From positions 87,345-151,344 of the forward strand of contig CAVXCX010000020.1 of the NCBI GenBank assembly GCA_963760395.1: a DNA stretch of 64,000 bases. Reading direction: 5' to 3'. Position 1 is the stretch's first letter; every line of letters begins with the position of its first letter. Under the pieces are notes generated by a model. The model was not told where the DNA came from. It saw only the letters and a program-made list of their open reading frames with translations, and made no database searches. The translations under genes and the position numbers were made by a program. Shown one piece after another: positions 46,204 to 60,058 of the stretch. The DNA comes from an uncultured Gammaproteobacteria bacterium. GTDB lineage: Bacteria; Pseudomonadota; Gammaproteobacteria; Steroidobacterales; Woeseiaceae.

Positions 46204-47190
46204 ATGGAATTATCCTGGCAATCTGAATTTGCAAGAAATTGGCGCGATCGAATCGCCCAAGGGCGTCAGCCTCACGCGATCCTGTTGCTGGGCCCGGCAG
46301 GTGTGGGCAAGCGGGCCGCCGCAGCCTGGATCGCCCGACTGGCCCTGGAGCCGGCGCAATGCGGGCAACTACCGAGCCATCCGGTCGAAATCCTGGAGCA
46401 CCCGGATCTTCGCTGGATATCCCCGCTGGAGGACAAGCAGGCCATCGGTATCGACCAGATTCGCCGCCTCGTCAGCGATCTTGGCCTGACCAGCTATGCC
46501 GGCGACGGCAAGGTAGCGGTAGTCGAACCGGCCAACGCCATGACCGACAGCGCCGCCAACAGCCTGCTCAAGACGCTTGAAGAACCCCCTGGTGATGCGC
46601 TGCTTATCCTGATTGCCGATCGGGTGGGCCGGCTACCGGCGACCATCTTTAGTCGATGCCAACGCATCGAATTTACGCAGCCAGCCGAAGCGGCGGCGCT
46701 GGAGTGGCTCAATCGACTGCATCCAGGCAGCGCCTGGACAGAAGCCTTGCGATCCGCCGGAGGCGCGCCGATAGGCGCGATCGCGGCCTTAGACAATCTC
46801 GAAACCAGCGCGGCGATGGCGCGCGATTTCAACGCAGTTGGGCGAGGCGAGAGCTCACCGGTTGCCGTCGCTGCGCGCTGCTCGAAGCTCGACCCTGCGT
46901 TCGTTCTGAACTGGTTGGCTCAACAGGTCAATCTGATGGCTGTCGCGCAATCTGCGGGTCGTGACAAGGCCCAGGGTCTGGTAATCGACGATTCTGTGCT
47001 ACGGCGCATGGACAGGCGAAATCTGTTCTGCTATTTAGACATAATAAATCGGCTACGTGGTCAGCCTGGCGGTTCCTATAACGTCCAGCTGACTTTTGAG
47101 GGCCTCTTGATCGATTGGGCTGGCGGGCTTAAGGACTGCGGGCCCGAAGAACCAAACGACGGCATGAACCTGATGCTGGCGAGCCGCTAG
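46204..47190 (+). CDS. holB: DNA polymerase III delta' subunit
   Basis: 328-aa ORF with HAILLLGPAGVGKR and the SRCQ motif (IFSRCQRIEF). Confidence 0.85.
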   Translation: MELSWQSEFARNWRDRIAQGRQPHAILLLGPAGVGKRAAAAWIARLALEPAQCGQLPSHPVEILEHPDLRWISPLEDKQAIGIDQIRRLVSDLGLTSYAGDGKVAVVEPANAMTDSAANSLLKTLEEPPGDALLILIADRVGRLPATIFSRCQRIEFTQPAEAAALEWLNRLHPGSAWTEALRSAGGAPIGAIAALDNLETSAAMARDFNAVGRGESSPVAVAARCSKLDPAFVLNWLAQQVNLMAVAQSAGRDKAQGLVIDDSVLRRMDRRNLFCYLDIINRLRGQPGGSYNVQLTFEGLLIDWAGGLKDCGPEEPNDGMNLMLASR

Positions 47191-47234
47191 ACCAATTGCA
47201 ATAAACGTCGCCAACCGGGCAAAAAGGGCAAGTA

Positions 47235-47573
47235 ATGAGCAAACCAGGACTGCTAACACTCACCATTAAGGACAAGAGTGCGCTGTATCTCGCGTACATG
47301 CCCTACGTAATCAATGGCGGGCTGTTTATTCCTACCAGTAGCTCCTACAAGCTTGGCGATGAGGTATTCATGCTGCTGAACCTGATGGGCGAGGAGGAGA
47401 AAATACCGGTCGCAGGAACGGTGATCTGGATGACGCCGAAAGGCGCTCAAGGCAAGCGGACGGCGGGCATAGGCGTGCAGTTCAGCGACCAGGACCAGGG
47501 AAACACGCAGAAGAAAATCGAAACCTACCTGGCAGGCGCACTCGGCGGCGACAAACCTACCCACACGATGTAA
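47235..47573 (+). CDS. pilZ: PilZ-domain protein (type IV pilus assembly PilZ type)
   Basis: 112-aa ORF with GGLFIPT and GIGVQF. It has the conserved position after holB. Confidence 0.8.
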   Translation: MSKPGLLTLTIKDKSALYLAYMPYVINGGLFIPTSSSYKLGDEVFMLLNLMGEEEKIPVAGTVIWMTPKGAQGKRTAGIGVQFSDQDQGNTQKKIETYLAGALGGDKPTHTM

Positions 47574-47594
47574 TCCCGGCTGGGCTGAATCCCG

Positions 47595-48641
47595 CTAGCC
47601 CTGCTCTGTGTTGATGCCGTCGCGCAATACGTAGGCTTTGTAGCCGCGCTCACTGAGAATATAGGCTCCGGCCGAGCTACGGCGTCCGGTATCGCAACAA
47701 ACGATGTATTTCTTCTCAGGGTCCAGCGTCGATATCTTGAGGCGTATGAAATACAGCGGGATGTTGATGGCACCATCAAGGCGCTGATTTTCAAATTCGC
47801 TGGGCAACCTCACGTCGAGCCACTGGCCGCCGGACTGCACAATCTCCTGTGCCTGTTCCTTGGAAACCCAGTCCAGCATCGGCTCGTTCAATAACTTCTT
47901 GAAGTCCTCTTTGCCGAGGCGCATCACCGATCCGTCCGTCTGCATCGTCACCGTGGCGTTGCGCTTGGCTTCGGATATCAAAGCTTCCTCGCCAAATGTG
48001 TCACCTACGTGCAGCTCCGCGAGTTTAATCCCTTCCTTACTGAGCGGCGTTTCGCGGGTCACCAGCGCATTGCCGCGGATCAGTACATAAAAGTAGTCGC
48101 CTTCGGCACCTTGTTTCAGGATGACATCACCGGACTTATAGTTGATCTGCTGCATGCGCATGAAGATCGCCTGGATATTGGCAGGCGGAATCTTGTGGAA
48201 CGCCTTGGTCTGCAGCAACATCGTCATCCAGTCTTCATTGCCCTCATCAGACCGACCGGCCAGTTCCGAAACCTCGTAGGTGCCGGTCTGGTCCCAGGTA
48301 AGCATGACGTCAAGCAGATCGCTGTCGATCGACAAGAACTGCACTCGATCACGGGCACGAGCGGAGATGCGGCGCGGGAAGACCGGTGCGACAGGATTGC
48401 GGGCAAACTCGGTGCCGCCATCGATTTTGCCGACGACTTTGGCCTGATCGACCAGCTCGAGCGTACCGGAAACCACATAAATCGTGCGTTTTTCGGTGTC
48501 ACCCTCTTTGAAGAGCATTTGTCCGGGCGATAGCTCCCGAATCTGCACCTTACGGGCGAGCGCCGCGAGATTGTCCCGTTTGAGACCATCCAGCGGAGAA
48601 AACCGCCTGAGCATTTCAGTGCTTACCTGCTCAGCTGCCAT
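47595..48641 (-). CDS. Protein with two cyclic-nucleotide-binding domains and a C-terminal rhodanese domain
   Basis: 348-aa ORF. It has two cNMP-like beta-barrel regions (second: GDYFYVLIRGN...FGEEALISEAKRNATV) and a rhodanese loop CCDTGRRS. Confidence 0.7.
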   Translation of the reverse strand: MAAEQVSTEMLRRFSPLDGLKRDNLAALARKVQIRELSPGQMLFKEGDTEKRTIYVVSGTLELVDQAKVVGKIDGGTEFARNPVAPVFPRRISARARDRVQFLSIDSDLLDVMLTWDQTGTYEVSELAGRSDEGNEDWMTMLLQTKAFHKIPPANIQAIFMRMQQINYKSGDVILKQGAEGDYFYVLIRGNALVTRETPLSKEGIKLAELHVGDTFGEEALISEAKRNATVTMQTDGSVMRLGKEDFKKLLNEPMLDWVSKEQAQEIVQSGGQWLDVRLPSEFENQRLDGAINIPLYFIRLKISTLDPEKKYIVCCDTGRRSSAGAYILSERGYKAYVLRDGINTEQG

Positions 48642-48799
48642 TGTGTGTCCAGAAATAAATCGCCATTCGCTCTTCGTTGTGGTTCTTGCTTTGCAGGCGG
48701 CATTCTACCTTTAATTCAACGACTTCCGGTACCCGTTAAATAGCGCATCGTGAATCACCGCACAGTTTATTATCCAATATGGGGCTCAGGTCACAACCG

Positions 48800-50815
48800 T
48801 TACAGCTCTGACCAGCCTGCATGCGGCTTAAATCGGTCGCCGTGGCGATCAGCAAGCCTCTTGAGCGCCGAGAGCACCTCTGCTTTGCCTCGTTCCCGCG
48901 CGTAGTTCAGTGGGCCACCGCGAAATGGAGCGAATCCTGTCCCGAAGATGACGCCGGCGTCCAGGAGATCGGCCTCTTTGACGACTCCTTCATGCAGGCA
49001 AGCCACTGCTTCGTTGACCATCGGCAGGATCAGCCTGTCCTGGATATCGTCCGGAATATTTGCGTTATCTGCCGCCGGTTTGATGGCCTTGCCATCCTCC
49101 CAGCGATAAAAGCCCTGACCGGATTTCCTGCCTATCAAGCCTTCGTCCACCATCTTCGAGAGGTGTGCCGGGATCGGACGATTCATGGCAGCACCCAGCA
49201 CTTTCGAAACATGCAGCGCAACGTCGAGCCCGACGCTGTCGACCAGTTCGACAGGTCCCATCGGCATGCCGAAGGCCTCCGCCGCCCGATCAATCTCCAC
49301 CAGCGGCACACCATCCTCGTGCAGATGCATCGCCTCCGCCATGTAAGGGGCGAGGATACGATTGACCACAAACCCTGGCGAACTGGCGCACTCCAGCGGC
49401 AATTTGCCGATGCCCTTGGTGAATGCGAAGCCGATGTCCATTGCTTCCTGATCGGTGTCTTCACACCGTATGACCTCGACCAGCGGCAACATTGCCACAG
49501 GGTTAAAGAAGTGCAGTCCGATGAAACGCCGCGGCTCATCAAGCACTGTGCGCAGTTCCTCCAGCCGAATACTGGAGGTGTTACTGGCAAGCAGGGCGCC
49601 GGGTTTCATCTTCGCTTGCAGCACTTTGTACAGCTCCTGCTTTGCTTCGAGGTTTTCATAGATGGCCTCGATGATCAGGTCGGCGTCGGCCGCGCCGTCA
49701 CCGTTCACGTCGGCGCGCAATCGCTGCTCCGTCTTTGTTCGTTCGTCCGCATTGCGAACGCGTTTTTCGAACAGTTTCCTGGCCCGCGCAAGTGCCGGAT
49801 CGATATATTTTTGCTCCCGATCCTGCAAGGTTACGGTGTGCCCGCGCAGCGCACACCAGGCGGCGATATCGCCACCCATGACCCCGGCTCCAACAACATG
49901 AACATGCCGGATCTTCGTTTCGGTCTTGCTACCTTGTCCCTTCAGGCGGCTTTGCAGGAAGAATACGCGCACAAGATTGCGTGAACTGCTGCTGCACATC
50001 AGGCTGGCGAAGCTTCGTGCCTCCGCCTCATAGCCGCTCTTTGTCGACGCTCCATCGGATGCCCAGATGTCGATCATTGCGTAAGGGGCAGGGTAATGTT
50101 CCTTGCGAGCCTTGCTGCGAACCTGCTTCAGCAACATGTTGCGAACGAATGACCTCGCCACTTTGAGGTTCATCAGGCGATCGACCAGCGGCGCACGTTG
50201 CTTTGGTTTAGCTGCCTGAATCAGGTTAGCCGCGGCGCTGCGCCAGTCATCATCAGCAACGATCTTATCTATCAGCCCGATTCGGCGTCCCTTGGATGGC
50301 GTGATCGGGTTACCGGTCAGCATCAAAGGCATGCCAGCCCGGACGCCGCAAATCTGGATGGCACGAACGGTGCCACCAAATCCCGGATGCAGGCCGAGCT
50401 TCACCTCCGGAAGACCCAGGATGCGCTGATCGGATTCCAGCGAAATCCGGTAATCGCAAGCCATCGCAAGCTCCAGGCCGCCGCCAAGGCAGACACCGTT
50501 GATTACCGCGACGCTTGGGCACTTGAGATTTTCGATACGATTGAATAACTGCTGGCCCTGTGAGACGAGTTCATAGGCCAGCTGCTCTGATTCGATGCCA
50601 ACGAATTCCTTGATGTCGGCACCCATGACAAAGCTACCTGATTTGCCCGAATGCACGACAAGTCCACGAGGCGGCTTCGCCTCGAGCTGCTTCAGGATGT
50701 CATCGAGTTCGAGCATGACCTCTGACGAAAGCACATTTGCACTTGCGTCGGCCTTGTCAATGCACAACCAGAAGATTCCGTCGTCGTCAGTGTTCGTTTT
50801 CCAATGTTGGTTCAT
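48800..50815 (-). CDS. Fatty-acid oxidation complex alpha subunit-like enzyme (enoyl-CoA hydratase + 3-hydroxyacyl-CoA dehydrogenase)
   Basis: The start was moved to ATG 50815 (MNQHWKTN...), which removes the overlap with the next gene. It has a crotonase N-domain and a GAGVMGGDIA Rossmann motif. Confidence 0.85.
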   Translation of the reverse strand: MNQHWKTNTDDDGIFWLCIDKADASANVLSSEVMLELDDILKQLEAKPPRGLVVHSGKSGSFVMGADIKEFVGIESEQLAYELVSQGQQLFNRIENLKCPSVAVINGVCLGGGLELAMACDYRISLESDQRILGLPEVKLGLHPGFGGTVRAIQICGVRAGMPLMLTGNPITPSKGRRIGLIDKIVADDDWRSAAANLIQAAKPKQRAPLVDRLMNLKVARSFVRNMLLKQVRSKARKEHYPAPYAMIDIWASDGASTKSGYEAEARSFASLMCSSSSRNLVRVFFLQSRLKGQGSKTETKIRHVHVVGAGVMGGDIAAWCALRGHTVTLQDREQKYIDPALARARKLFEKRVRNADERTKTEQRLRADVNGDGAADADLIIEAIYENLEAKQELYKVLQAKMKPGALLASNTSSIRLEELRTVLDEPRRFIGLHFFNPVAMLPLVEVIRCEDTDQEAMDIGFAFTKGIGKLPLECASSPGFVVNRILAPYMAEAMHLHEDGVPLVEIDRAAEAFGMPMGPVELVDSVGLDVALHVSKVLGAAMNRPIPAHLSKMVDEGLIGRKSGQGFYRWEDGKAIKPAADNANIPDDIQDRLILPMVNEAVACLHEGVVKEADLLDAGVIFGTGFAPFRGGPLNYARERGKAEVLSALKRLADRHGDRFKPHAGWSEL

Positions 50816-50831
50816 TTTCAGATTGCTCTTG

Positions 50832-51566
50832 TCAGGCGAGTTCAAAGTCACAGACCAATGGCATATGGTCTGACAGTTTGACATCCGGGATTTCAAACGA
50901 TGTTACCTGGAGGCCATCCTGGTAAAGGATGAAATCCAGTTCCTTGCGTGGTGCACGGCTCGGATACGTTGGTTGGCTTTCTGTGTTCGCTGAACGCAGG
51001 CCTGCCGCTTTCATGAACAGGTAGATTTCGTTTTCACCCCAGAAGGTGTTGAAATCACCGGCTACCAGCACTGGCTTGCTGGTTGCCTGGATCAAGTCAT
51101 ACAGGTGGCGCAGCTGCAAATGGCGATGCCGATACTTGAGCGAAAGGTGCACGAGGAAGATTGCATAGTCCTTCATCTCGAGCTCTATGATAAGGCGCTT
51201 GATACCGGTGTCGAAGTAATGAAAGGTCTCGCCGTGAACTCGCGGCGCAGCCATAAAAGCGTTTCCCTGCATGCGCACGATTGGCAGCAGCTGATTAAAA
51301 GACTTCTGGCCGTACTTGGTCTCGTAGGACGCGTTCATGCCAAGGTCGGCGGCGAGTTTCTCGGCTTGATTGACATTGCGGCTGCGGATGGAGCCCGTAT
51401 CGACTTCGATCAGGCCGACAACGTCAGGATCGACTGATTTGATGAACTTCGCAATCTCCGGCAGCACCGTCTGGTTTCCCAGAACGTAGCCCGCGCCGGG
51501 CAGGGGCATATGCATGCTCGCGCCACCGCCAACCGCGTATCGGATGTTATATAAAAGAAGCCTCAT
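50832..51566 (-). CDS. Endonuclease/exonuclease/phosphatase (EEP) family protein
   Basis: 244-aa ORF with LLLYNIRY, VAGDFN, and a C-terminal SDHMPLVCDF. Confidence 0.75.
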   Translation of the reverse strand: MRLLLYNIRYAVGGGASMHMPLPGAGYVLGNQTVLPEIAKFIKSVDPDVVGLIEVDTGSIRSRNVNQAEKLAADLGMNASYETKYGQKSFNQLLPIVRMQGNAFMAAPRVHGETFHYFDTGIKRLIIELEMKDYAIFLVHLSLKYRHRHLQLRHLYDLIQATSKPVLVAGDFNTFWGENEIYLFMKAAGLRSANTESQPTYPSRAPRKELDFILYQDGLQVTSFEIPDVKLSDHMPLVCDFELA

Positions 51567-51692
51567 GCGGCGCTACGATACCGAAAGCCCCATGGCATGG
51601 AAACCACTGAGATCAATCTGTGACAAGGATTTCGCGGGGAGGCGTCGAATTGGCTAAACTACGGGAAAGGGGCCGCTAAAACGGAGTGCACG

Positions 51693-52169
51693 GTGTCAGA
51701 AAATAACCCGATTCGGGTATTCGCTACCCACACGTTTGAAGAAAACGATGACTACTTGCGCGTATTCGAGTTTCTCGAAAGCCTGGATCGCTTCTACTAC
51801 ATCAACGTCAGCAAACCTGAGAACATCCCGCTGTCGGGCGGAGTACAGGCGATCAAAGACGAGCTCATTGCGCAAATCAAGCAGTGCGAGGCCGTGTTTG
51901 TACTGCCGGGCCTGTATGACGAAAAGACGGACCTGGTTCGTTTCATGATGGATGTCGCCGACGCCAATGACAAAAAGATGATCGCGATAAAGCCCTTCGG
52001 CGGCGTAGCGGAAACGCCTGAAGAGGTGCTCAAGCGCTGCAAGGAACTGATCGACTGGAACGACCGTGAGATGGCGGATGCGTTGCGGCGCCAGGCTCGG
52101 GGCGAAGACACGTCCCGCTGGGAGGTGCTGGATTTCCCTGGCTTTGACGCTGATGGACCTATTGAATAA
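51693..52169 (+). CDS. Hypothetical cytoplasmic protein; possible TIR-like/flavodoxin-like fold
   Basis: 158-aa ORF with a GTG start. RVFATHTFEENDDY...AVFVLPGLYDEKTDLVRFMMDVA...KKMIAIKP weakly resembles stand-alone TIR-like (DUF1863-type) domains. This is not verified. Confidence 0.3.
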   Translation: MSENNPIRVFATHTFEENDDYLRVFEFLESLDRFYYINVSKPENIPLSGGVQAIKDELIAQIKQCEAVFVLPGLYDEKTDLVRFMMDVADANDKKMIAIKPFGGVAETPEEVLKRCKELIDWNDREMADALRRQARGEDTSRWEVLDFPGFDADGPIE

Positions 52170-52216
52170 GTCTAAAAAACAACTATTTATGACTGATATT
52201 TAATGTTGTTTAGATT

Positions 52217-53164
52217 ATGAGGCCAGTCGTCATTGCCCATCGCGGCGCCTCGGGCTACCTGCCGGAGCACACTTTGCCCGCCAAGGCGCTCGCCTATGCC
52301 ATGGGGGCCGACTATCTTGAGCAGGATGTCGTAGCGACACGGGATGACGCCCTGGTCGTTCTGCACGATATCCACCTCGATCGCGTTACCAATGTCGCTA
52401 CCTGCTATCCGGGCCGACAGCGTGCTGATGGACGCTACTATGTTCGGGACTTTGACCTGGCCGAGATCAAGACGCTCAACGTCTGCGAGCGAGTTGGTCC
52501 CGGTGGCTTACCGGTGTACCCGGGCAGATTCAAGGATACGGACGAGGTGTTTCGAGTCCAGACCTTCGCCGAGGAGCTCGAATTCGTACGTTCCCTGATT
52601 TCGGCAAACGATCGGATGGTCGGAATCTACCCTGAAATCAAGCGACCGCAATGGCACCGCAGCGAGGGATTCGACATCACCCTGGAATTTCTCCGTACCT
52701 TGGCCGACTACGGCTACAACAAGCACTCAGATCCGGTCTACGTGCAATGCTTCGACGCCTCTGAATTGCGCCGCATCCGCCACGAGCTGGGCTGCCGGAT
52801 GAAGCTGGTACAGCTTATCGCCGAGGATGGCTGGGCCGAATCGCCTACGAAATATGCGGCGCTGCGCACGCAGAAGGGACTGCAGCGGCTGGCGAAGACG
52901 GTCGATGGCATTGGGCCGTGGCTCAGACGCGCCTACCGTCTGCGAAAACGTGATGGCAAGTTGACGCCGTCCGGGCTGGTGCAACGCGCGCATCAGGTGG
53001 GTCTGGCCGTGCATCCCTATACTTTTCGGACCGACGAGCTGCCACCCGGTTTCGCATCCTTTGACGATTTACTGGCTTATTTCATCCACGATCTGGCCAT
53101 TGACGGCCTGTTTACCGATTTTCCTGACCAGGCTCTGCAATTCTTGCGAAGGATTTCTGCCTGA
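52217..53164 (+). CDS. glpQ: Glycerophosphodiester phosphodiesterase
   Basis: 315-aa ORF with VIAHRGASGYLPEHT and EQDV. No signal peptide is visible. Confidence 0.85.
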   Translation: MRPVVIAHRGASGYLPEHTLPAKALAYAMGADYLEQDVVATRDDALVVLHDIHLDRVTNVATCYPGRQRADGRYYVRDFDLAEIKTLNVCERVGPGGLPVYPGRFKDTDEVFRVQTFAEELEFVRSLISANDRMVGIYPEIKRPQWHRSEGFDITLEFLRTLADYGYNKHSDPVYVQCFDASELRRIRHELGCRMKLVQLIAEDGWAESPTKYAALRTQKGLQRLAKTVDGIGPWLRRAYRLRKRDGKLTPSGLVQRAHQVGLAVHPYTFRTDELPPGFASFDDLLAYFIHDLAIDGLFTDFPDQALQFLRRISA

Positions 53165-53221
53165 CGGGCCTCTAACGCAATGCAATAGTATGGACCTCAA
53201 CGGAAAGCAGGGAGGCTGGAA

Positions 53222-53698
53222 ATGAAAAAACTGCCAATTTTGGGCGCAATTTTGCTGGCGTGGATGATGCTGATGTCGCCGCTTGCGGAGTCTGCGGCAG
53301 CGCCCGGCGAGACACTGGATCTTGCCAACTACGAGGGCAAAGTCGTGGTTCTCGACTTCTGGGCGTCCTGGTGTGTGCCGTGTCGGCGCTCCTTCCCCTG
53401 GCTGAACGAGATGCACAAGAAATATGCCCAGGACGATCTGGTCATTATCGGCGTCAACGTCGATCAGGACCAGGACGATGCGGCTGCGTTCCTCGACAAA
53501 TACCCCGCCCAGTTCCGAATTAGCTACGACGCAAACGGTGTGCTGGCCAAGGCTTATGGCGTTCGAGGCATGCCGAGTTCGTTTGTCATTGGTCGCGACG
53601 GTCAGCTGGCAGCCCAGCACCTTGGTTTTAAAGTGAAGCGACAGGACGAATACGAAGCGGCAATAGTCGCTGCCCTCCAGCAGGAGATATCTAAATGA
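53222..53698 (+). CDS. TlpA-family periplasmic thiol:disulfide oxidoreductase
   Basis: 158-aa ORF with a signal peptide and the thioredoxin motif FWASWCVPCRRSFP. Confidence 0.88.
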   Translation: MKKLPILGAILLAWMMLMSPLAESAAAPGETLDLANYEGKVVVLDFWASWCVPCRRSFPWLNEMHKKYAQDDLVIIGVNVDQDQDDAAAFLDKYPAQFRISYDANGVLAKAYGVRGMPSSFVIGRDGQLAAQHLGFKVKRQDEYEAAIVAALQQEISK

Positions 53699-53913
53699 AC
53701 AAGACGATTGTCATCGCAGCAACGACGCTGCTCATTGCTACCGGATGCTCTTCGATGGGTGTTGAGCCCTGGGAGCGCGATGTACTGGCAAAGGCTGAGA
53801 TGCAGCTGACCACCGACGAACTCGAGGCTGCGACGGATGACCACATCTATTTCAGTAAAGAGGCGTCCAGCGGCGGGCGTGGATTTGGCGGCGGCGGCTG
53901 CGGCTGTAACTGA
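53695..53913 (+). CDS. DUF4266-type small lipoprotein with C-terminal GGGGCGCN
   Basis: 72-aa ORF with lipobox LIATGCS and VEPWERDVLAKAEM. It has an ATGA overlap with the tlpA-like gene. Confidence 0.7.
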   Translation: MNKTIVIAATTLLIATGCSSMGVEPWERDVLAKAEMQLTTDELEAATDDHIYFSKEASSGGRGFGGGGCGCN

Positions 53914-53923
53914 GGGCATACGA

Positions 53924-55232
53924 ATGAGCAAACAAGACAATCGATCGATTTCAGCGGCGCTCGCCACGGCAACATGCACCTTGTTGGGTTCCGGCGTTGT
54001 GCAACCCGCGGTTGCGCAGGAAGAACCGGACTGGGACTTCAATACCTCTCTGCTGTATTACGGGGAGGACGGCGACCGGGTTAAAGATTTCAGCGTCAGT
54101 GCTATTGCACGACGCATGTTCGTTGATGACCGCTTCCTGACCCTGAGCCTGACGGTTGACGGTCTGACCGGTGCCACGCCGAGTGGCGCGATTCGTCAGG
54201 ACGTGCCGCAGACCTTCACGCGCCCATCCGGCAATGCCGCTTATACCGTTCCAGGCGGTGTATTGCCGCTCGATGACACGTTCAAGGACACGCGAGTGGC
54301 AATCAGCGGCGGCTGGCAACAGCCGATCGGCGAGACCAGCCTGATCAATGTTGGCGCCAGTGCTTCCAAGGAATACGATTACATGCACCTCGGGGTAAAC
54401 GCCAAGTACGCCCGTGACTTCAACCAGCGAAATACCACCCTGTCGGCGGGCATTGCACTGTCAATGGATTCCCTGGATCCGGTCGGCGGCGCACCGACGC
54501 CGCTAACGCCGATGCTTGATGTTGGCGATACCAGCAACAGGTTGGGCGACCAGGACAAGGACGTGCTGGACGTGGTTTTCGGCGTGACACAGGTAATAAT
54601 CGCGAAACCTCGTCGTGCAGGCGAACTACTCGTACAGTATGTCGGACGGCTACCTTACGGATCCGTACAAGGTGTTGAGCCTGGTCGATGGCACCACAGG
54701 CGATACGCTGCTGCGAACGTTGACGCCCGGCGTTGAAGGGCCTTCTCACCAATACCTGTTCGAGAACCGACCGGATGAGCGCACCAAGCACAGCCTCTAC
54801 GGCCAGGCAAAGTACTACATGAACGGCAAGGTACTCGACGCGTCCTATCGCTACATGACGGATGACTGGGATATTGACTCTCACACGGTCGACCTGCGAT
54901 ACCGGATCCCGTTCGGTACGGACAGCTATATTGAGCCACACCTGCGTTTCTACACGCAGACTGAGGCTGAGTTCTATCAGCTGAGTATTTCGGATGCGCA
55001 GCCGCTACCGAGCTTCGCATCGGCGGATTATCGTCTCGGCAATTTCGACGCTATTACGGCAGGCGTGAAGTATGGCTGGCGAACGCGCAACGACAATGAG
55101 ATGAGTCTGCGTGTCGAGGCCTATCGTCAGACGGGCACGGTGCCTGGCAGCCAGATTATCGGCAACCAGGCGTCGCGGGATAATTACCCGGACCTGAACG
55201 CCGTAATCGTGCAGTTCGGTTATCGCTTCTAG
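53924..55232 (+). pseudogene. DUF3570-type protein (putative outer-membrane beta-barrel) read in two frames; frame change near 54596-54602
   Basis: The ATG 53924 product has a signal peptide (..PAVA/QEE). The sequence continues across frames (...FGVTQVI / LVVQANYSYSMSDGYLTDPYK...). The C-terminus ...VQFGYRF is OMP-like. Confidence 0.65.
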
Positions 55233-55302
55233 GGGTCCCAGGCAGGCGGATGATATCCGCCTGGAACTGGCCGAAGATGCCTGGCATGGCCGATTTCAGG
55301 CC

Positions 55303-56130
55303 ATGGGGAGCCCTTGCGAGCTGGTTTGTGAGGCGCCGAAAAGAGCGGATGCTCTCAGGCTTACAGAACGCGTCGCGGCCGAGGCCTGGCGTATCGAGGA
55401 GAAATTCAGCCGCTACCTCGAGGGCAATATCGTCGCCCGGATTAACGCCGCAAGCGGTAAGGCTATCGAAGTTGACGAGGAAACCGCGGATCTGCTGGAT
55501 TTCGCGGTAACACTTTACGACCTCAGCGAGCATCGATTCGATATCACCTCGGGCGTACTGCGACGTGTTTGGCGTTTCGACGGTAGCGACTGCATTCCAG
55601 GCGTCTCTGAGGTCGAGGCGGTGATGCAGCTGGTCGGGTGGCACCGGGTCAGTTGGCAACGACCGTATATGCAGATGCCGGCAGGCATGGAAATAGATCT
55701 CGGTGGAATCGGCAAGGAATACGCGGTTGACCGCTGCGCGGCCCTGATTCGGGAGGAGGGGGGCGATCCCTGCCTGGTCAATTTCGGCGGCGACCTGGTC
55801 GCCACGGAAGCACCTCATCGCCGACGACACTGGAAAGTGGCGATCGAAGGTGACAGTGCTGCGGAAGCTGACCGGATCGTCAACCTCAAGCAAGGCGCAC
55901 TTGCCACCAGCGGCGACGCTCGACGATTCCTGCTCAAGGACGGCAGACGTTACAGTCACATTCTGGACCCGACGACCGGTTGGCCTGTACCTGACGCACC
56001 CAGATCGATTACGATTGTGGCCGATACCTGCGTAGAGGCAGGTACAGTCAGTACCCTGGCAATGCTGAAGGGGGCTGCCGCCGAGGACTTTCTCAAGGCA
56101 CAAACGGCGGCCTTCTGGTGCAGACGTTAA
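55303..56130 (+). CDS. apbE: FAD:protein FMN transferase (ApbE family); true start probably upstream of the first ATG
   Basis: 275-aa ORF with AMGSPCEL, DLGGIGKEYAVD, ATSGDARRF and HILDPTTGWP. The frame stays open and protein-like back to 55207, but without a canonical start codon. Confidence 0.85.
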   Translation: MGSPCELVCEAPKRADALRLTERVAAEAWRIEEKFSRYLEGNIVARINAASGKAIEVDEETADLLDFAVTLYDLSEHRFDITSGVLRRVWRFDGSDCIPGVSEVEAVMQLVGWHRVSWQRPYMQMPAGMEIDLGGIGKEYAVDRCAALIREEGGDPCLVNFGGDLVATEAPHRRRHWKVAIEGDSAAEADRIVNLKQGALATSGDARRFLLKDGRRYSHILDPTTGWPVPDAPRSITIVADTCVEAGTVSTLAMLKGAAAEDFLKAQTAAFWCRR

Positions 56131-56320
56131 TTCGCTGCGTGCCTGGCAGATATTAAAAATAGAGTTAATAAACGCCCGTAAGATATTGGTATATAACGGG
56201 TTTATAGTCGGTTTTTCTGGCGTATTGGCGGCAAACCACTGAACTTGTAAGCTGCCCGCCGGTGTCAGTATTGAGAACCCGGTCCTGTTATGAAAAGTAA
56301 ATCCAAATAATCATAGCCTA

Positions 56321-56845
56321 ATGTTTGTCGAACTCCCCGAGAATCTCGTAATGATAGCGGCAGCGTTCTTGCTGGGCCTGCTGCTGGCGACCGTTGTTTC
56401 CTCTATTACGTCTGGCAATCGGAGCAAGAAACGCGATCCTCGAGACGACCGTATCCGGTCCCTCGAAGCCGAACTTCGCGTATCCCAAAGCGCGGCAACC
56501 AAGGCTCAGGAAGAACTCGAAGGCCTTGATGAAGAGCTTAAGGAAACGACGATCGGCATCGAGCGTCGCGATAATGTGATTAGCGAGCAGCAGTCCAAGC
56601 TTGATCGTGTATCCAGAGATCTGAAAGAGTCGGTCATGAAGACGCGGGAACTGCGCTCTGAACTGACTGAGCGTGCTACTGAAAATGTGCATGCGGAAGC
56701 CAAGATCAGGGAGGTCGAGACGGAACTGTCAGTAGCGCAGGCCTCACAGGACCTTCTCGCCACTGGCGTGCTTGACTACAAGTTTGTGCCCGACGAAGAT
56801 GACCCTGACGGCGAACAAGCCGAAGTGAGTGGGGCCACTACCTGA
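56321..56845 (+). CDS. Membrane-anchored coiled-coil protein of unknown function
   Basis: 174-aa ORF with one N-terminal TM segment, a basic cluster, a long heptad-like acidic/basic region, and a C-terminus ...EVSGATT. Confidence 0.6.
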   Translation: MFVELPENLVMIAAAFLLGLLLATVVSSITSGNRSKKRDPRDDRIRSLEAELRVSQSAATKAQEELEGLDEELKETTIGIERRDNVISEQQSKLDRVSRDLKESVMKTRELRSELTERATENVHAEAKIREVETELSVAQASQDLLATGVLDYKFVPDEDDPDGEQAEVSGATT

Positions 56846-56883
56846 TTTTTTCCAACGCTGTAACAGCTCGCCCGTGCCTGGTA

Positions 56884-57654
56884 TTGGCTGGGCTGGTTCT
56901 GCTTCTGTCGAGCGCCTGCTCAAAACCCTACCTTGGGGTCAAGGTGCCATTCGTCGCGACCTGGAATGGCAGTCCGATCGCCTGCGCCGACGAAGGGATC
57001 GCTCTGAGTGATCTGCGGCTATATGTTTCCTCCCTGCAGCTGCTTGACGCGGCTGGTATTGCCCACGACCTGCAATTGCACACTGACATTCCCTGGCAGC
57101 AGCCGGATCTGGCGCTGATCGACCTCGAGAATGGGCAGGATGCCTGTCGGGACGGCACGCCAGGGTTGTTCGCGTACCTGGTCGGCGGCGTGCCGCCAGG
57201 TGAATACAAGGGGCTAAGATTCACCGTCGGCGTGCCTTTTGAACGTAACCATGCCAACCCCCTGATTGCCGAGGCACCGTTAGACGATCCGGCCATGCAC
57301 TGGCACTGGCGCTCCGGCTACAAATTCCTGCGCGCGGGCGTCAGGACGCAAGACGATGGTTTCTGGATGCATATGGGTAGCGCCGGCTGCCAGGGGACCG
57401 TCAGGGATATCAGCGGCTGCCGCTTTCCGAATCGCGTTACCGTTGAACTCCACGACTTTTCACCTAACAGCGATTCAATCGCTATCGATCTGAAGGCGCT
57501 GTTTGATGGTGTGAACTTCGATGACGGCCTACCCGGTGATTGCTCGTCAGGACCTGCAGAGTCTGCCTGCGTTGCCCCGTTCGCCGCACTGGGAATAGAC
57601 TTTGAGACCGGCACAACAAAAGGGCGACAGAACGTATTTTCGACCTATCGATGA
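56884..57654 (+). CDS. mbnP: MbnP-family copper-binding (lipo)protein
   Basis: 256-aa ORF with LLSSAC lipobox-like N-terminus, HWHWRSGYKFLR and multiple conserved-looking Cys. Its stop overlaps the start of the di-haem partner (ATGA). The TTG start is uncertain because the signal peptide is very short. Confidence 0.65.
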   Translation: MAGLVLLLSSACSKPYLGVKVPFVATWNGSPIACADEGIALSDLRLYVSSLQLLDAAGIAHDLQLHTDIPWQQPDLALIDLENGQDACRDGTPGLFAYLVGGVPPGEYKGLRFTVGVPFERNHANPLIAEAPLDDPAMHWHWRSGYKFLRAGVRTQDDGFWMHMGSAGCQGTVRDISGCRFPNRVTVELHDFSPNSDSIAIDLKALFDGVNFDDGLPGDCSSGPAESACVAPFAALGIDFETGTTKGRQNVFSTYR

Positions 57655-58781
57655 GAAACGTACTCCTGGCTTGCGGTGTCGCCGCCGTCCTCGCAATGGT
57701 GTTCTGGTGGCTGCAACGCGAACCCGCCTACGAATGGCGCCTCCCGGCTGACGTTCCAGCGCCATTGGTTCCTGCGGATAATCCGATGTCAGCGACAAAG
57801 GTGCAGCTTGGCCGATGGTTGTTCTATGACACACGCCTGTCTGGCAATGGCAGCATGTCCTGCGCGAGTTGCCATATCCAGGCCCTGGCGTTTACCGATG
57901 GCAAGGCGCGCTCGATCGGTTCCACTGGCGAGGTTCACCCTCGTGCTTCGATGAGTCTCGTTAATGTCGCGTACGCGAGTCGACTGACATGGGCAAACCC
58001 GCTACTGGATCGCCTGGAAGACCAGGCTTTAACGCCGCTACTCGGTGACAGTCCGATTGAAATGGGTTTCGGAAACCACGCCGATGAATTTGCAGTCTTA
58101 CTGGAGAGTGACCCCAGCTATGCCGCGTTAACCAGGGCGGCCTTTTCAGGCGATGAGAATCCCTATTCGCTGCTCAATGGTGTTCGCGCGATTTCCGCAT
58201 TCGTTCGCAGTATTGTCAGCTTTGACACGCCCTATGATCGTTACATGGCAGGGGACGACGACGCTCTTGGCGAGGCGGCCATGCGCGGCATGGATCTGTT
58301 CTTTTCTGAAAAACTCGAGTGCTTCCATTGTCACGGGGGCTTCAATTTTTCAGACAGCACTACGCACGCAAACACACGTGTTGATCCCGTCGGTTTTCAC
58401 AACACCGGCCTTTACAATGTGGGCGGCGAGGGTGCTTACCCTGAGGACAACACCGGTCTATTCGATATGACAGGCGAGCGTCGCGACATGGGTCGATTCA
58501 AGGCTCCCTCGTTGCGAAATATCGCGGTCACCGCGCCTTACATGCACGACGGCAGCGTCGCTACTCTCGGCGATGCGATCTCACATTACTCAAGAGGCGG
58601 ACGCCTCATAGAACAGGGTGAGTATGCAGGTGACGGACGGCTTAGCCCGTACAAGTCTGAGTTTGTAACTGGCTTCGAGCTCTCGGATGAGCAGAGCAGG
58701 GACCTCGTCGCATTCCTGGAATCCCTGACCGATGCAACGGTCTTGTCGGATGAGCGTTTCTCTAATCCGCACCTTGATTAG
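57651..58781 (+). CDS. mbnH: MbnH-family di-haem cytochrome c peroxidase/MauG-like enzyme
   Basis: 376-aa ORF with two CxxCH sites (CASCH, CFHCH) and the CCP/MauG-like motifs FKAPSLRNIAVTAPYMHDGS. Confidence 0.75.
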   Translation: MRNVLLACGVAAVLAMVFWWLQREPAYEWRLPADVPAPLVPADNPMSATKVQLGRWLFYDTRLSGNGSMSCASCHIQALAFTDGKARSIGSTGEVHPRASMSLVNVAYASRLTWANPLLDRLEDQALTPLLGDSPIEMGFGNHADEFAVLLESDPSYAALTRAAFSGDENPYSLLNGVRAISAFVRSIVSFDTPYDRYMAGDDDALGEAAMRGMDLFFSEKLECFHCHGGFNFSDSTTHANTRVDPVGFHNTGLYNVGGEGAYPEDNTGLFDMTGERRDMGRFKAPSLRNIAVTAPYMHDGSVATLGDAISHYSRGGRLIEQGEYAGDGRLSPYKSEFVTGFELSDEQSRDLVAFLESLTDATVLSDERFSNPHLD

Positions 58782-59512: not shown

Positions 59513-60058
59513 ATGACGATCATATCTTTGTGGCTGCCAATTCTGGTGTCGGCGGTCGTCGTTTATGTAGCCGGTGCCGCGATCTGGATGGCGATGCCAT
59601 GGCATAAGAAGGAATGGCACAAGACAGCGGACGAAGAGGCCGTCAGGGCTGCGCTCAAAGGCTGTCCGGCCGGTATGTATACGATTCCAAACGTATGCGA
59701 TCAGGCGGATTTCAAGAAGCCCGAAGTGCAGCAGAAATTTGTCGACGGGCCGACGGCATTCATCACCGTAGTGCCCTCCGGGTTGCCGAAGATGGGCGGC
59801 AAGCTTGTCATGATGTTTGCGTACAACCTGGTTGTTGCCATTGTTTGTGCGTACATGGTTAGTCGCACTTTGCCGGCGGATGCCGATTATCTCGCAGTTT
59901 TCAGGATCAGCGGCACGGTCGCTTTTATTGCGTATGGCATGGCCTACATCCAGGAGAGTATCTGGTTCGGCCGGAGGTGGTCGTCGACGCTACTCACGTT
60001 TTTCGATGCGTTGATTTACGCGGTTCTTACTGGCGGCATTTTTGGCTGGCTGGTGTAA
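59513..60058 (+). CDS. Membrane protein of unknown function
   Basis: 181-aa ORF with about four hydrophobic segments. GGGGG/AGAAGG purine-rich Shine-Dalgarno region upstream. Confidence 0.55.
   Translation: MTIISLWLPILVSAVVVYVAGAAIWMAMPWHKKEWHKTADEEAVRAALKGCPAGMYTIPNVCDQADFKKPEVQQKFVDGPTAFITVVPSGLPKMGGKLVMMFAYNLVVAIVCAYMVSRTLPADADYLAVFRISGTVAFIAYGMAYIQESIWFGRRWSSTLLTFFDALIYAVLTGGIFGWLV

Follow-up and report, generated by a model that had tools for sequence, protein, structure and literature searches.

What the four closely packed genes at 53222-56130 do together is the question raised by this locus, which lies on the + strand of the window (the whole 64,000-nucleotide stretch of DNA analysed here) and encodes, in one orientation, a TlpA-like thioredoxin, a DUF4266 lipoprotein, a DUF3570 protein and an ApbE-family flavin mononucleotide (FMN) transferase. 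Based on profile matches, the locus is almost certainly a Woeseiaceae copy of the ApbE-DUF3570-DUF4266-thioredoxin-like flavinylation cassette reported by Méheust et al. (2021, eLife 10:e66878, PMC8238504). As an explanation of its function we favour, with a slight leaning rather than strong conviction, a relay in which thiols of the thioredoxin and of DUF4266 would pass electrons to an FMN held covalently by an outer-membrane barrel, DUF3570. A previous sequence-only reading had named the same four families (with WCVPC as the thioredoxin motif) and an operon-like packing, both of which hold in our analysis. It had also called the module uncharacterised, rightly in that no role has been assigned experimentally and wrongly in that the combination had already been described in 2021 (PMC8238504).

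A search of the full-text literature on DUF3570 or DUF4266 returned essentially one relevant study, PMC8238504. A 2023 preprint mentions the DUF4266/DUF3570/TlpA neighbourhood in passing, DUF3570 is absent from a 2024 follow-up on the structural contexts of flavinylation, and it is not mentioned in a 2025 review of ApbE. Méheust et al. identified DUF3570 as a new substrate of ApbE, the family that transfers FMN onto the last Ser/Thr of an [S/T]GA[S/T] motif, and reported that DUF3570 of Chlorobium luteolum is flavinylated by its cognate ApbE, the modification being lost only when the serines of both [S/T]GA[S/T] motifs are mutated (PMC8238504). They counted 227 clusters combining DsbD, ApbE, DUF3570, a thioredoxin-like protein and DUF4266, and 316 with the same four genes but without a DsbD close by, pointed out that DUF4266 has a conserved CXC, and proposed a hybrid thioredoxin-like/flavinylation electron relay fed by DsbD, while calling the function uncertain and recording the iron transporter VIT1 in 25 clusters (PMC8238504). 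The four-gene combination and the idea of an electron relay are already published; the physiological role is not. What is new here is the confident model of a 16-stranded barrel, the predicted outer-end flavin site, the near-invariant tail of DUF4266, natural TlpA-DUF4266 fusions and ApbEs without signal peptides.

Relatives were collected by scanning 185,579 species genomes for GYLTDPYK, a DUF3570 motif, which gave 568 confirmed stretches. The best 80 of these, together with L001, the contig that encodes the DUF3570 protein P0001 of a Woeseiaceae metagenome-assembled genome (MAG) and is 98.4% identical to positions 47103-58633 of the window, form the set of 81 loci used throughout; retrieval was seeded with a 27-sequence subset sharing GYLTDPYK, which biases the 80 loci towards Gammaproteobacteria. 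Searching with the window proteins by phmmer, we detected DUF4266 in 79 of the 81 loci, TlpA in 77 and ApbE in 73. Eight loci are cut by a contig end, and among the 73 untruncated ones all four genes occur together in 70, an outcome that bears out the co-occurrence expected by the sequence-only reading; only L062, L070 and L074 truly lack a member of the module. The order TlpA, DUF4266, DUF3570, ApbE on one strand is found in most of the 70 loci (52 as listed), and most of the other listed orders reflect over-extended starts of open reading frames (ORFs), ApbE lying upstream in L057. The loci span Woeseiaceae, Steroidobacteraceae, Marinobacter, Pseudoalteromonadaceae, one alphaproteobacterium and Acidobacteriota. 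For two distant DUF3570 representatives, P0239 and P0268, the contigs are too short to reveal neighbouring genes. Clearly, the four-gene arrangement is not due to chance, and every further gene family is found in at most 24 of the 81 loci. In the window, the TlpA and DUF4266 genes share an ATGA overlap (53695-53698), 10 nucleotides (nt; 53914-53923) separate DUF4266 from DUF3570, and each of the first three genes is preceded by a good Shine-Dalgarno sequence, such as GGGAGG 8 nt 5' of the TlpA gene.

The DUF3570 protein, in the repaired form discussed below, starts with a signal peptide (residues 1-31), contains GYLTDPYK and ends in the C-terminal beta-signal ...VQFGYRF, with a terminal Phe. 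An alignment of 86 DUF3570 sequences served both for counting motif columns and for an AlphaFold2 model, which reached a pLDDT of 94.3 and a pTM of 0.86 and has 16 strands: strands 1-8 at residues 38-48, 54-66, 70-86, 116-135, 139-150, 153-166, 171-184 and 210-226, and strands 9-16 at 229-242, 285-299, 302-313, 318-329, 334-345, 374-386, 392-404 and 424-434. The turns following even-numbered strands measure 2-5 residues, and long loops follow strands 3, 7, 9, 13 and 15. Compared with the PDB by Foldseek, the model matched only outer-membrane barrels (AlgE, OmpG, Occ, FadL and TonB-dependent transporters), the top matches having E values of 4e-10 and below and TM-scores of 0.3-0.43, which indicates a generic barrel with no close structural relative; a sequence search of the PDB found no solved structure of DUF3570. 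The signal peptide, the even number of strands, the alternation of short turns and long loops and the C-terminal aromatic residue are all those of an outer-membrane barrel. We conclude from the model that DUF3570 is very probably an outer-membrane beta-barrel, in line with the earlier suggestion of a barrel. To our knowledge, this is the only case of an ApbE flavinylating an integral outer-membrane barrel.

The flavinylation motif of the window protein is D79-G-L-T82-G83-A84-T85, with the codon of T85 at 54176-54178, and it belongs to the most conserved stretch of the family, D79-x-L-[T/S]82-G83-A84-[S/T]85-P-N-G88-A89. Among the 86 sequences, G83 and S/T85 are present in all, D79 in 85, T/S82 in 82 and A84 in 76, and judging from this pattern FMN is likely to be carried on Thr85. 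In the neighbouring S87-G88-A89-I90 the acceptor position is taken by Ile, and S/T occurs there in only 24 of the 86 sequences. Strand 3 (70-86) ends one residue after position 85. Outer-membrane proteins follow the rule that the N-terminus is periplasmic and the long loops are external, and this rule, applied to the strand map, puts Thr85 at the outer end. On strand 3, D79, G83 and T85 all point to one side, presumably into the lumen. Nearly all other invariant residues lie at the Thr85 end: S148, E150, D152, the stretch G242-K249 (G242-YLTDPYK), E280, R282 and P283, and further R309, D313, W315, R341, Q345, D368, R370 and Q402. The model makes it fairly probable that the FMN sits at the outer end and faces the lumen.

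The thioredoxin is made with a Sec signal peptide, its active site is W50-C51-V52-P53-C54 (53369-53383), and WCxPC is kept in 73 of 76 syntenic homologues. It scores below all NCBIfam equivalog cut-offs (ResA, 92.3 versus 170; TlpA, 70.1 versus 230; DsbE, 69 versus 123), and by sequence it is TlpA-like in fold and motif only, ResA, TlpA and DsbE being the nearest families. DUF4266 has the lipobox IATG|C18 and the C-terminus GGGGCGCN, in which a glycine-rich tail ends with C69-G70-C71-N72 (53899-53910). Its last 25 residues, DDHIYFSKEASSGGRGFGGGGCGCN, are near-invariant, with a GGCGCN ending in 78 of 79 loci, across loci in which the identity of the partner barrel falls to 45%. No solved structure of DUF4266 was found by sequence search of the PDB. 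All copies of DUF4266 are lipoproteins except in three loci where TlpA and DUF4266 are naturally fused in a single ORF (L057, 9138-9971; L064, 859-1542; L079, 8909-9640), in an unclassified bacterium and two Acidobacteriota MAGs. In these fusions a signal peptide and a TlpA domain with WCxPC run straight into DUF4266, with no lipobox and the same CGCN tail. They provide Rosetta-stone evidence that the thioredoxin and the Cys-Gly-Cys (CGC) peptide act on each other, and their lack of a lipobox suggests that the lipid anchor of DUF4266 is dispensable. An apparent DUF4266-DUF3570 fusion in L014 (8245-10203) was rejected, being the product of an in-frame deletion through which DUF4266 has lost its CGC tail and run into DUF3570.

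The ApbE domain is complete and scores 218.6 bits against a Pfam cut-off of 25.6; its relatives in the PDB include TM1553 and FAD:protein FMN transferases, and the NCBIfam model of the canonical secreted ApbE, PRK10461, gives only 101.7 bits against a cut-off of 498. The sequence-only reading had placed a 70-nt gap before this gene, which exists only relative to the ATG at 55303. The 17 codons at 55252-55302 encode (D/E)IRLELAEDAWHGRFQA, and in eight related genomes their variability at codon positions 1/2/3 is 1/3/16, a coding signature suggesting that most of the gap is translated; the nine codons 5' of 55252 vary 6/7/7. The extension contains no in-frame ATG, GTG or TTG, which points to a non-canonical start codon near the ATC at 55255. 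By the sequence comparison, ApbE probably starts near 55255, which would reduce the true DUF3570-ApbE gap to about 22 nt. The Ile codon at 55255 is ATC, ATT or ATA in seven genomes and GTT in L002, and more distant relatives have an ATG immediately after the DUF3570 stop. A prfB-like +1 shift from DUF3570 into ApbE at TTC-TAG-G is unlikely, given the nine codons past the stop that lack a coding signature. The 717-aa DUF3570-ApbE protein P0228 (profile positions 2-405 and 15-256) is probably a frameshift artefact of the overlap region rather than a fusion, as it lacks the last barrel strand and the N-terminus of ApbE.

The window ApbE has neither a signal peptide nor a lipobox. None of the 73 syntenic ApbEs has a hydrophobic N-terminus; instead, 17-25 hydrophilic residues precede their conserved A-M-G/A-S-P-C-E motif. 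The majority of ApbEs are secreted lipoproteins, and the known cytosolic ones act on cytosolic substrates (PMC12052999). An ApbE without an export signal suggests that FMN may be attached while the precursor is still unfolded in the cytoplasm and has yet to pass through Sec. The published observation that DUF3570 lacking its signal peptide was flavinylated despite ending in the insoluble pellet (PMC8238504) fits modification of a non-native chain. We advance this order of events tentatively, as a serious possibility somewhat short of probable. The lack of a signal peptide on ApbE had been overlooked by the sequence-only reading, as had the frameshift in DUF3570.

In the mechanism that we favour, ApbE would flavinylate the unfolded DUF3570 precursor in the cytoplasm, with Sec export afterwards. 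The TlpA-like thioredoxin, presumably kept reduced by a DsbD/CcdA protein encoded elsewhere, would exchange electrons with the CGC pair of DUF4266, a step that we regard as reasonably likely. The slender, glycine-rich tail of DUF4266 would enter the barrel and hand two electrons to the FMN; that the tail reduces the flavin directly inside the barrel is a more doubtful proposal. From the FMN the electrons would go to an acceptor situated at the outer membrane or outside it, for which a metal or metal chelate is the leading guess, and delivery of electrons to such an external acceptor is the step to which we give least credit, as rather unlikely in that specific form. The proposal of the sequence-only reading that the module serves electron transfer or redox repair survives in its first half, since envelope electron transfer fits the data, and finds no specific support in its second. 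A long shot, finally, is that the cassette would be a haem-free, flavin-based conduit across the outer membrane, with cytoplasmic loading of FMN, Sec export, folding by the beta-barrel assembly machinery (BAM) such that the flavin ends up in the lumen at the outer rim, a CGC tail threading the barrel from the periplasmic side and electrons supplied via DsbD/TlpA; if true, redox devices of a new, trans-outer-membrane class would exist, and ApbE flavinylation would proceed in a novel order.

Several observations weigh against the favoured relay. DsbD/CcdA is absent from the 64-kb window, in which no polytopic ORF has PCxxP/CxxC motifs, and a second, secreted ApbE may be encoded elsewhere in the genome. 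If S87-G-A-I90 corresponds, as we take it to, to the second published flavinylation motif, that motif would have no acceptor here. The placement of Thr85 depends on the DSSP strand map of the predicted model and on the general topology rule. DUF3570 has no conserved cysteine, so that any reduction of FMN by the tail must be direct, with no flavin-proximal disulfide. Finally, the barrel gene is broken as sequenced.

This last point carries the strongest of the rival explanations, a fresh pseudogene: if the insertion at 54598 were real, no barrel would be made and the other three genes would be relics. The region 53924..55232 measures 1309 nt, which is not divisible by 3, and DUF3570 is split into two ORFs in different frames (53924-54736 and 54615-55232). 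Pairwise alignment of the window (GTAATAATCG) with L001 (GTCATATCG) reveals one additional A at window position 54598, and two in-frame stops follow the insertion. Without the A the gene reads as a 435-aa protein with 99.8% identity to P0001, and L001 encodes an intact 435-aa DUF3570; the protein of about 435 aa ending in FGYRF that the sequence-only reading had described is correct in its C-terminus but is not a single ORF in the window. Damaged copies exist in other MAGs (in L059, 821-2131, DUF3570 is split into two ORFs, and L014 has lost the CGC tail), which would agree with a pseudogene. However, 14 of the 15 codon differences between the window and L001 in DUF3570 are synonymous and one is non-synonymous, and the 6 substitutions downstream of the frameshift are all synonymous, so that the disruption is either very recent or an assembly error; the TlpA, DUF4266 and ApbE genes are intact as well. 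At least two other pairs of overlapping same-strand ORFs in the window resemble split genes, namely 17127-18182/18124-18480 for a tetratricopeptide-repeat protein, and 26550-28559/28453-29139, AddB-like, in which a PD-(D/E)XK nuclease domain starts mid-profile in the second ORF, and these make us lean to assembly indel errors. If both pairs are indeed split genes, indel errors in the assembly would be noticeably frequent. We consider an assembly or sequencing error the more probable origin of the extra A, and the pseudogene unlikely. Programmed frameshifting was rejected on the grounds of the intact close relative and of all other homologues being single ORFs.

The coordinates of the module and its neighbours are collected in the table below.

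Coordinates of the cassette and of neighbouring features (window positions, unless a locus of the comparison set is named)
Feature	Position or locus	Strand	Evidence
TlpA-like periplasmic thioredoxin, 158 aa	53222..53698	+	Pfam Redoxin 9e-25, AhpC-TSA 2e-23, Thioredoxin_8 1e-18
DUF4266 lipoprotein, 72 aa	53695..53913	+	Pfam PF14086, E 1.3e-22
DUF3570 gene, 5' part, codons 1-225	53924..54598	+	Pfam PF12094 positions 2-232, E 3e-51
Extra A shifting the DUF3570 frame	54598	+	Pairwise alignment with L001
DUF3570 gene, 3' part, codons 226-435 of the repaired protein	54600..55232	+	PF12094 positions 238-427, E 1.5e-67
ApbE-family FAD:protein FMN transferase	55252..56130; first canonical ATG 55303	+	Pfam PF02424, E 1.4e-64
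174-aa N-terminally anchored coiled-coil gene, between ApbE and MbnP	56321-56845
MbnP	56884-57654		NCBIfam 205 bits, cut-off 140
MbnH	57651-58781		NCBIfam 486 bits, cut-off 363
Extracytoplasmic function (ECF) sigma/FecR/TonB-dependent-receptor trio, divergent upstream	L021, L023, L025, L026, L028, L029, L030, L034
ECF/FecR/TonB trio, co-directional directly upstream of TlpA	L070 5238-9222
ECF/FecR/TonB trio, downstream	L047, L049, L053

A 190-nt AT-rich spacer separates ApbE from the coiled-coil gene. Scanning for promoters and terminators gave nothing above chance and no convincing internal terminator, and Rfam models detected no riboswitch, for FMN or otherwise, and no other element in the 50-60 kb part of the window. 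The commonest neighbours in the 81 loci reflect synteny local to Woeseiaceae (GDPD, a 158-aa protein, an EEP phosphatase, the 174-aa coiled-coil protein and a Frag1-like protein), and no recurrent DsbD-like family was seen across the set. In the window the 158-aa ORF, which has no Pfam family, lies at 51693-52169, and it is kept upstream of the module in about 23 Woeseiaceae loci; a 181-aa ORF at 59513-60058 with three hydrophobic segments also matches no Pfam family. MbnP and MbnH, which the sequence-only reading had placed directly downstream, pass the cut-offs of their families but are not immediate neighbours of ApbE, the coiled-coil gene lying in between. They stand beside the module in 7 of the 81 loci, all from close Woeseiaceae relatives, and in other Woeseiaceae the Frag1-like gene comes next after the coiled-coil gene. 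By this distribution they are a clade-local context and not components of the module, and by synteny the pair looks like a clade-specific insertion between the coiled-coil and Frag1-like genes.

These neighbours bear on a second rival, in which the outer-membrane flavin would be a reductase for metal acquisition, acting on free or chelated Fe(III) or Cu(II) at the surface or within the barrel and so making the metal available for uptake. The ECF sigma/FecR/TonB trio adjoins the module in 11-12 of the 81 loci, in at least three arrangements (divergent, co-directional upstream and downstream), and this trio, VIT1 in 25 of the published clusters and the copper-related MbnP/MbnH pair about 750 nt downstream of the module here together form a loose pointer to metal acquisition. 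Against this, about 75% of the loci have no metal-uptake neighbour, NCBIfam assigned no substrate to the neighbouring TonB-dependent receptors, and MbnP/MbnH are the apparent insertion just described. We regard a dedicated metal reductase as distinctly unlikely.

The favoured relay could also be read in the opposite direction, the flavinylated barrel acting, by analogy, as an Erv/Ero1-like thiol oxidase in which electrons would flow from CGC to FMN and on to O2 or an external acceptor, thereby oxidising TlpA or its clients; the module would then introduce disulfides or dump reducing equivalents instead of exporting electrons reductively. In Erv-family oxidases such as yeast Erv2p, a CXC shuttle disulfide on a flexible tail feeds the flavin centre (PMC3509050), so that a CXC on a flexible tail beside a flavin is a hallmark of sulfhydryl oxidases of this type. 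The absence of a nearby DsbD in the window and in 316 published clusters would agree with oxidation, as would the predicted position of the FMN at the outer end, where oxygen could potentially reach it. However, the flavin-proximal CXXC of Erv proteins is missing from DUF3570, which has no conserved Cys. Proteins of the TlpA/ResA/DsbE type, moreover, are typically reductants fed by DsbD. Another 227 published clusters do adjoin DsbD, and on balance we find a thiol oxidase improbable.

Very improbable, finally, is that DUF3570 would be, by analogy with RcsF/OMP or Slam-type systems, a channel or surface-exposure device through which DUF4266 is threaded to the surface, with flavin as a sensor or gate and thiol/flavin chemistry regulating the threading rather than carrying a steady electron flux: the pairing of a barrel with a small lipoprotein that has a long invariant glycine-rich tail, and the nearest structural matches being the substrate channels AlgE, FadL, OmpG and Occ, would suit it, but redox catalysis accounts better for the fact that a flavin transferase and a CxxC thioredoxin are obligatory partners, and the lipobox-free TlpA-DUF4266 fusions indicate that neither the lipid anchor nor the sorting of a lipoprotein is needed.

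The module is widespread, as judged from the 568 GYLTDPYK stretches, 1,935 distinct protein clusters at 50% identity and the 543 clusters of the 2021 survey, and the same cassette is present in cultured Marinobacter species (M. salinexigens and M. nitratireducens; loci L073 and L081), in which genetic tests are feasible. The outer-end flavin predicted here, the CGC tail, the fusions, the signal-less ApbE and the ECF/FecR/TonB neighbours make its function directly testable. The window copy itself is a routine, family-typical instance of a published system, and the choice between annotating its barrel gene as intact and as a pseudogene calls for a check at the level of reads.

Compared with the clusters of Méheust et al., the window copy has the same four families in operon-like packing, the DUF3570 motif, a small secreted DUF4266 ending in CXC and a CxxC thioredoxin, and it matches the DsbD-free version, of which 316 were reported. 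It differs in that its thioredoxin matches Redoxin, AhpC-TSA and Thioredoxin_8 whereas the paper names PF13899, in that its DUF3570 has an acceptor only in the first of two motifs (T85), if S87-G-A-I90 is rightly taken for the second, and in that its DUF3570 gene is frameshifted; the C. luteolum ApbE was expressed in 'signal peptide-truncated' form, whereas the window ApbE has no signal peptide.

The likeness to Erv/ALR oxidases is a functional analogy and not membership: like Erv enzymes, the cassette would use a Cys-X-Cys pair on a flexible terminus to shuttle two electrons between its thiol partner and its flavin centre. There is no relation in sequence or fold, Erv has a non-covalent FAD and a flavin-proximal CXXC, which DUF3570 lacks, and the shuttle of the cassette is on a separate lipoprotein, with a phosphoester-linked FMN in a predicted outer-membrane barrel. 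Porin-cytochrome conduits of the MtrCAB/PioAB type are likewise comparable by functional analogy only, as an outer-membrane barrel with a lipoprotein and periplasmic redox carriers through which electrons plausibly cross the outer membrane; the cassette has no haem-binding motifs, 16 strands versus about 26, thiols and one covalent FMN, and no homology to them. With the DsbD/CcdA-TlpA/ResA/CcmG pathways it shares a TlpA-like thioredoxin that has WCxPC and a signal peptide for the periplasm, yet here, with no DsbD in the window, the thioredoxin has an apparent dedicated partner, DUF4266, rather than a client in cytochrome or copper-protein maturation. The FMN-bind domains of NqrC, RnfG and PplA and the DUF2271 proteins of PepSY-like iron-reduction clusters resemble DUF3570 in an ApbE-dependent phosphoester FMN on an [S/T]GA[S/T]-like motif, with the cognate apbE adjacent. 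Those substrates are small and soluble or anchored in the inner membrane, and their ApbE is secreted, whereas DUF3570 is predicted to be an integral outer-membrane barrel and combines with a signal-less ApbE and a putative thiol relay.

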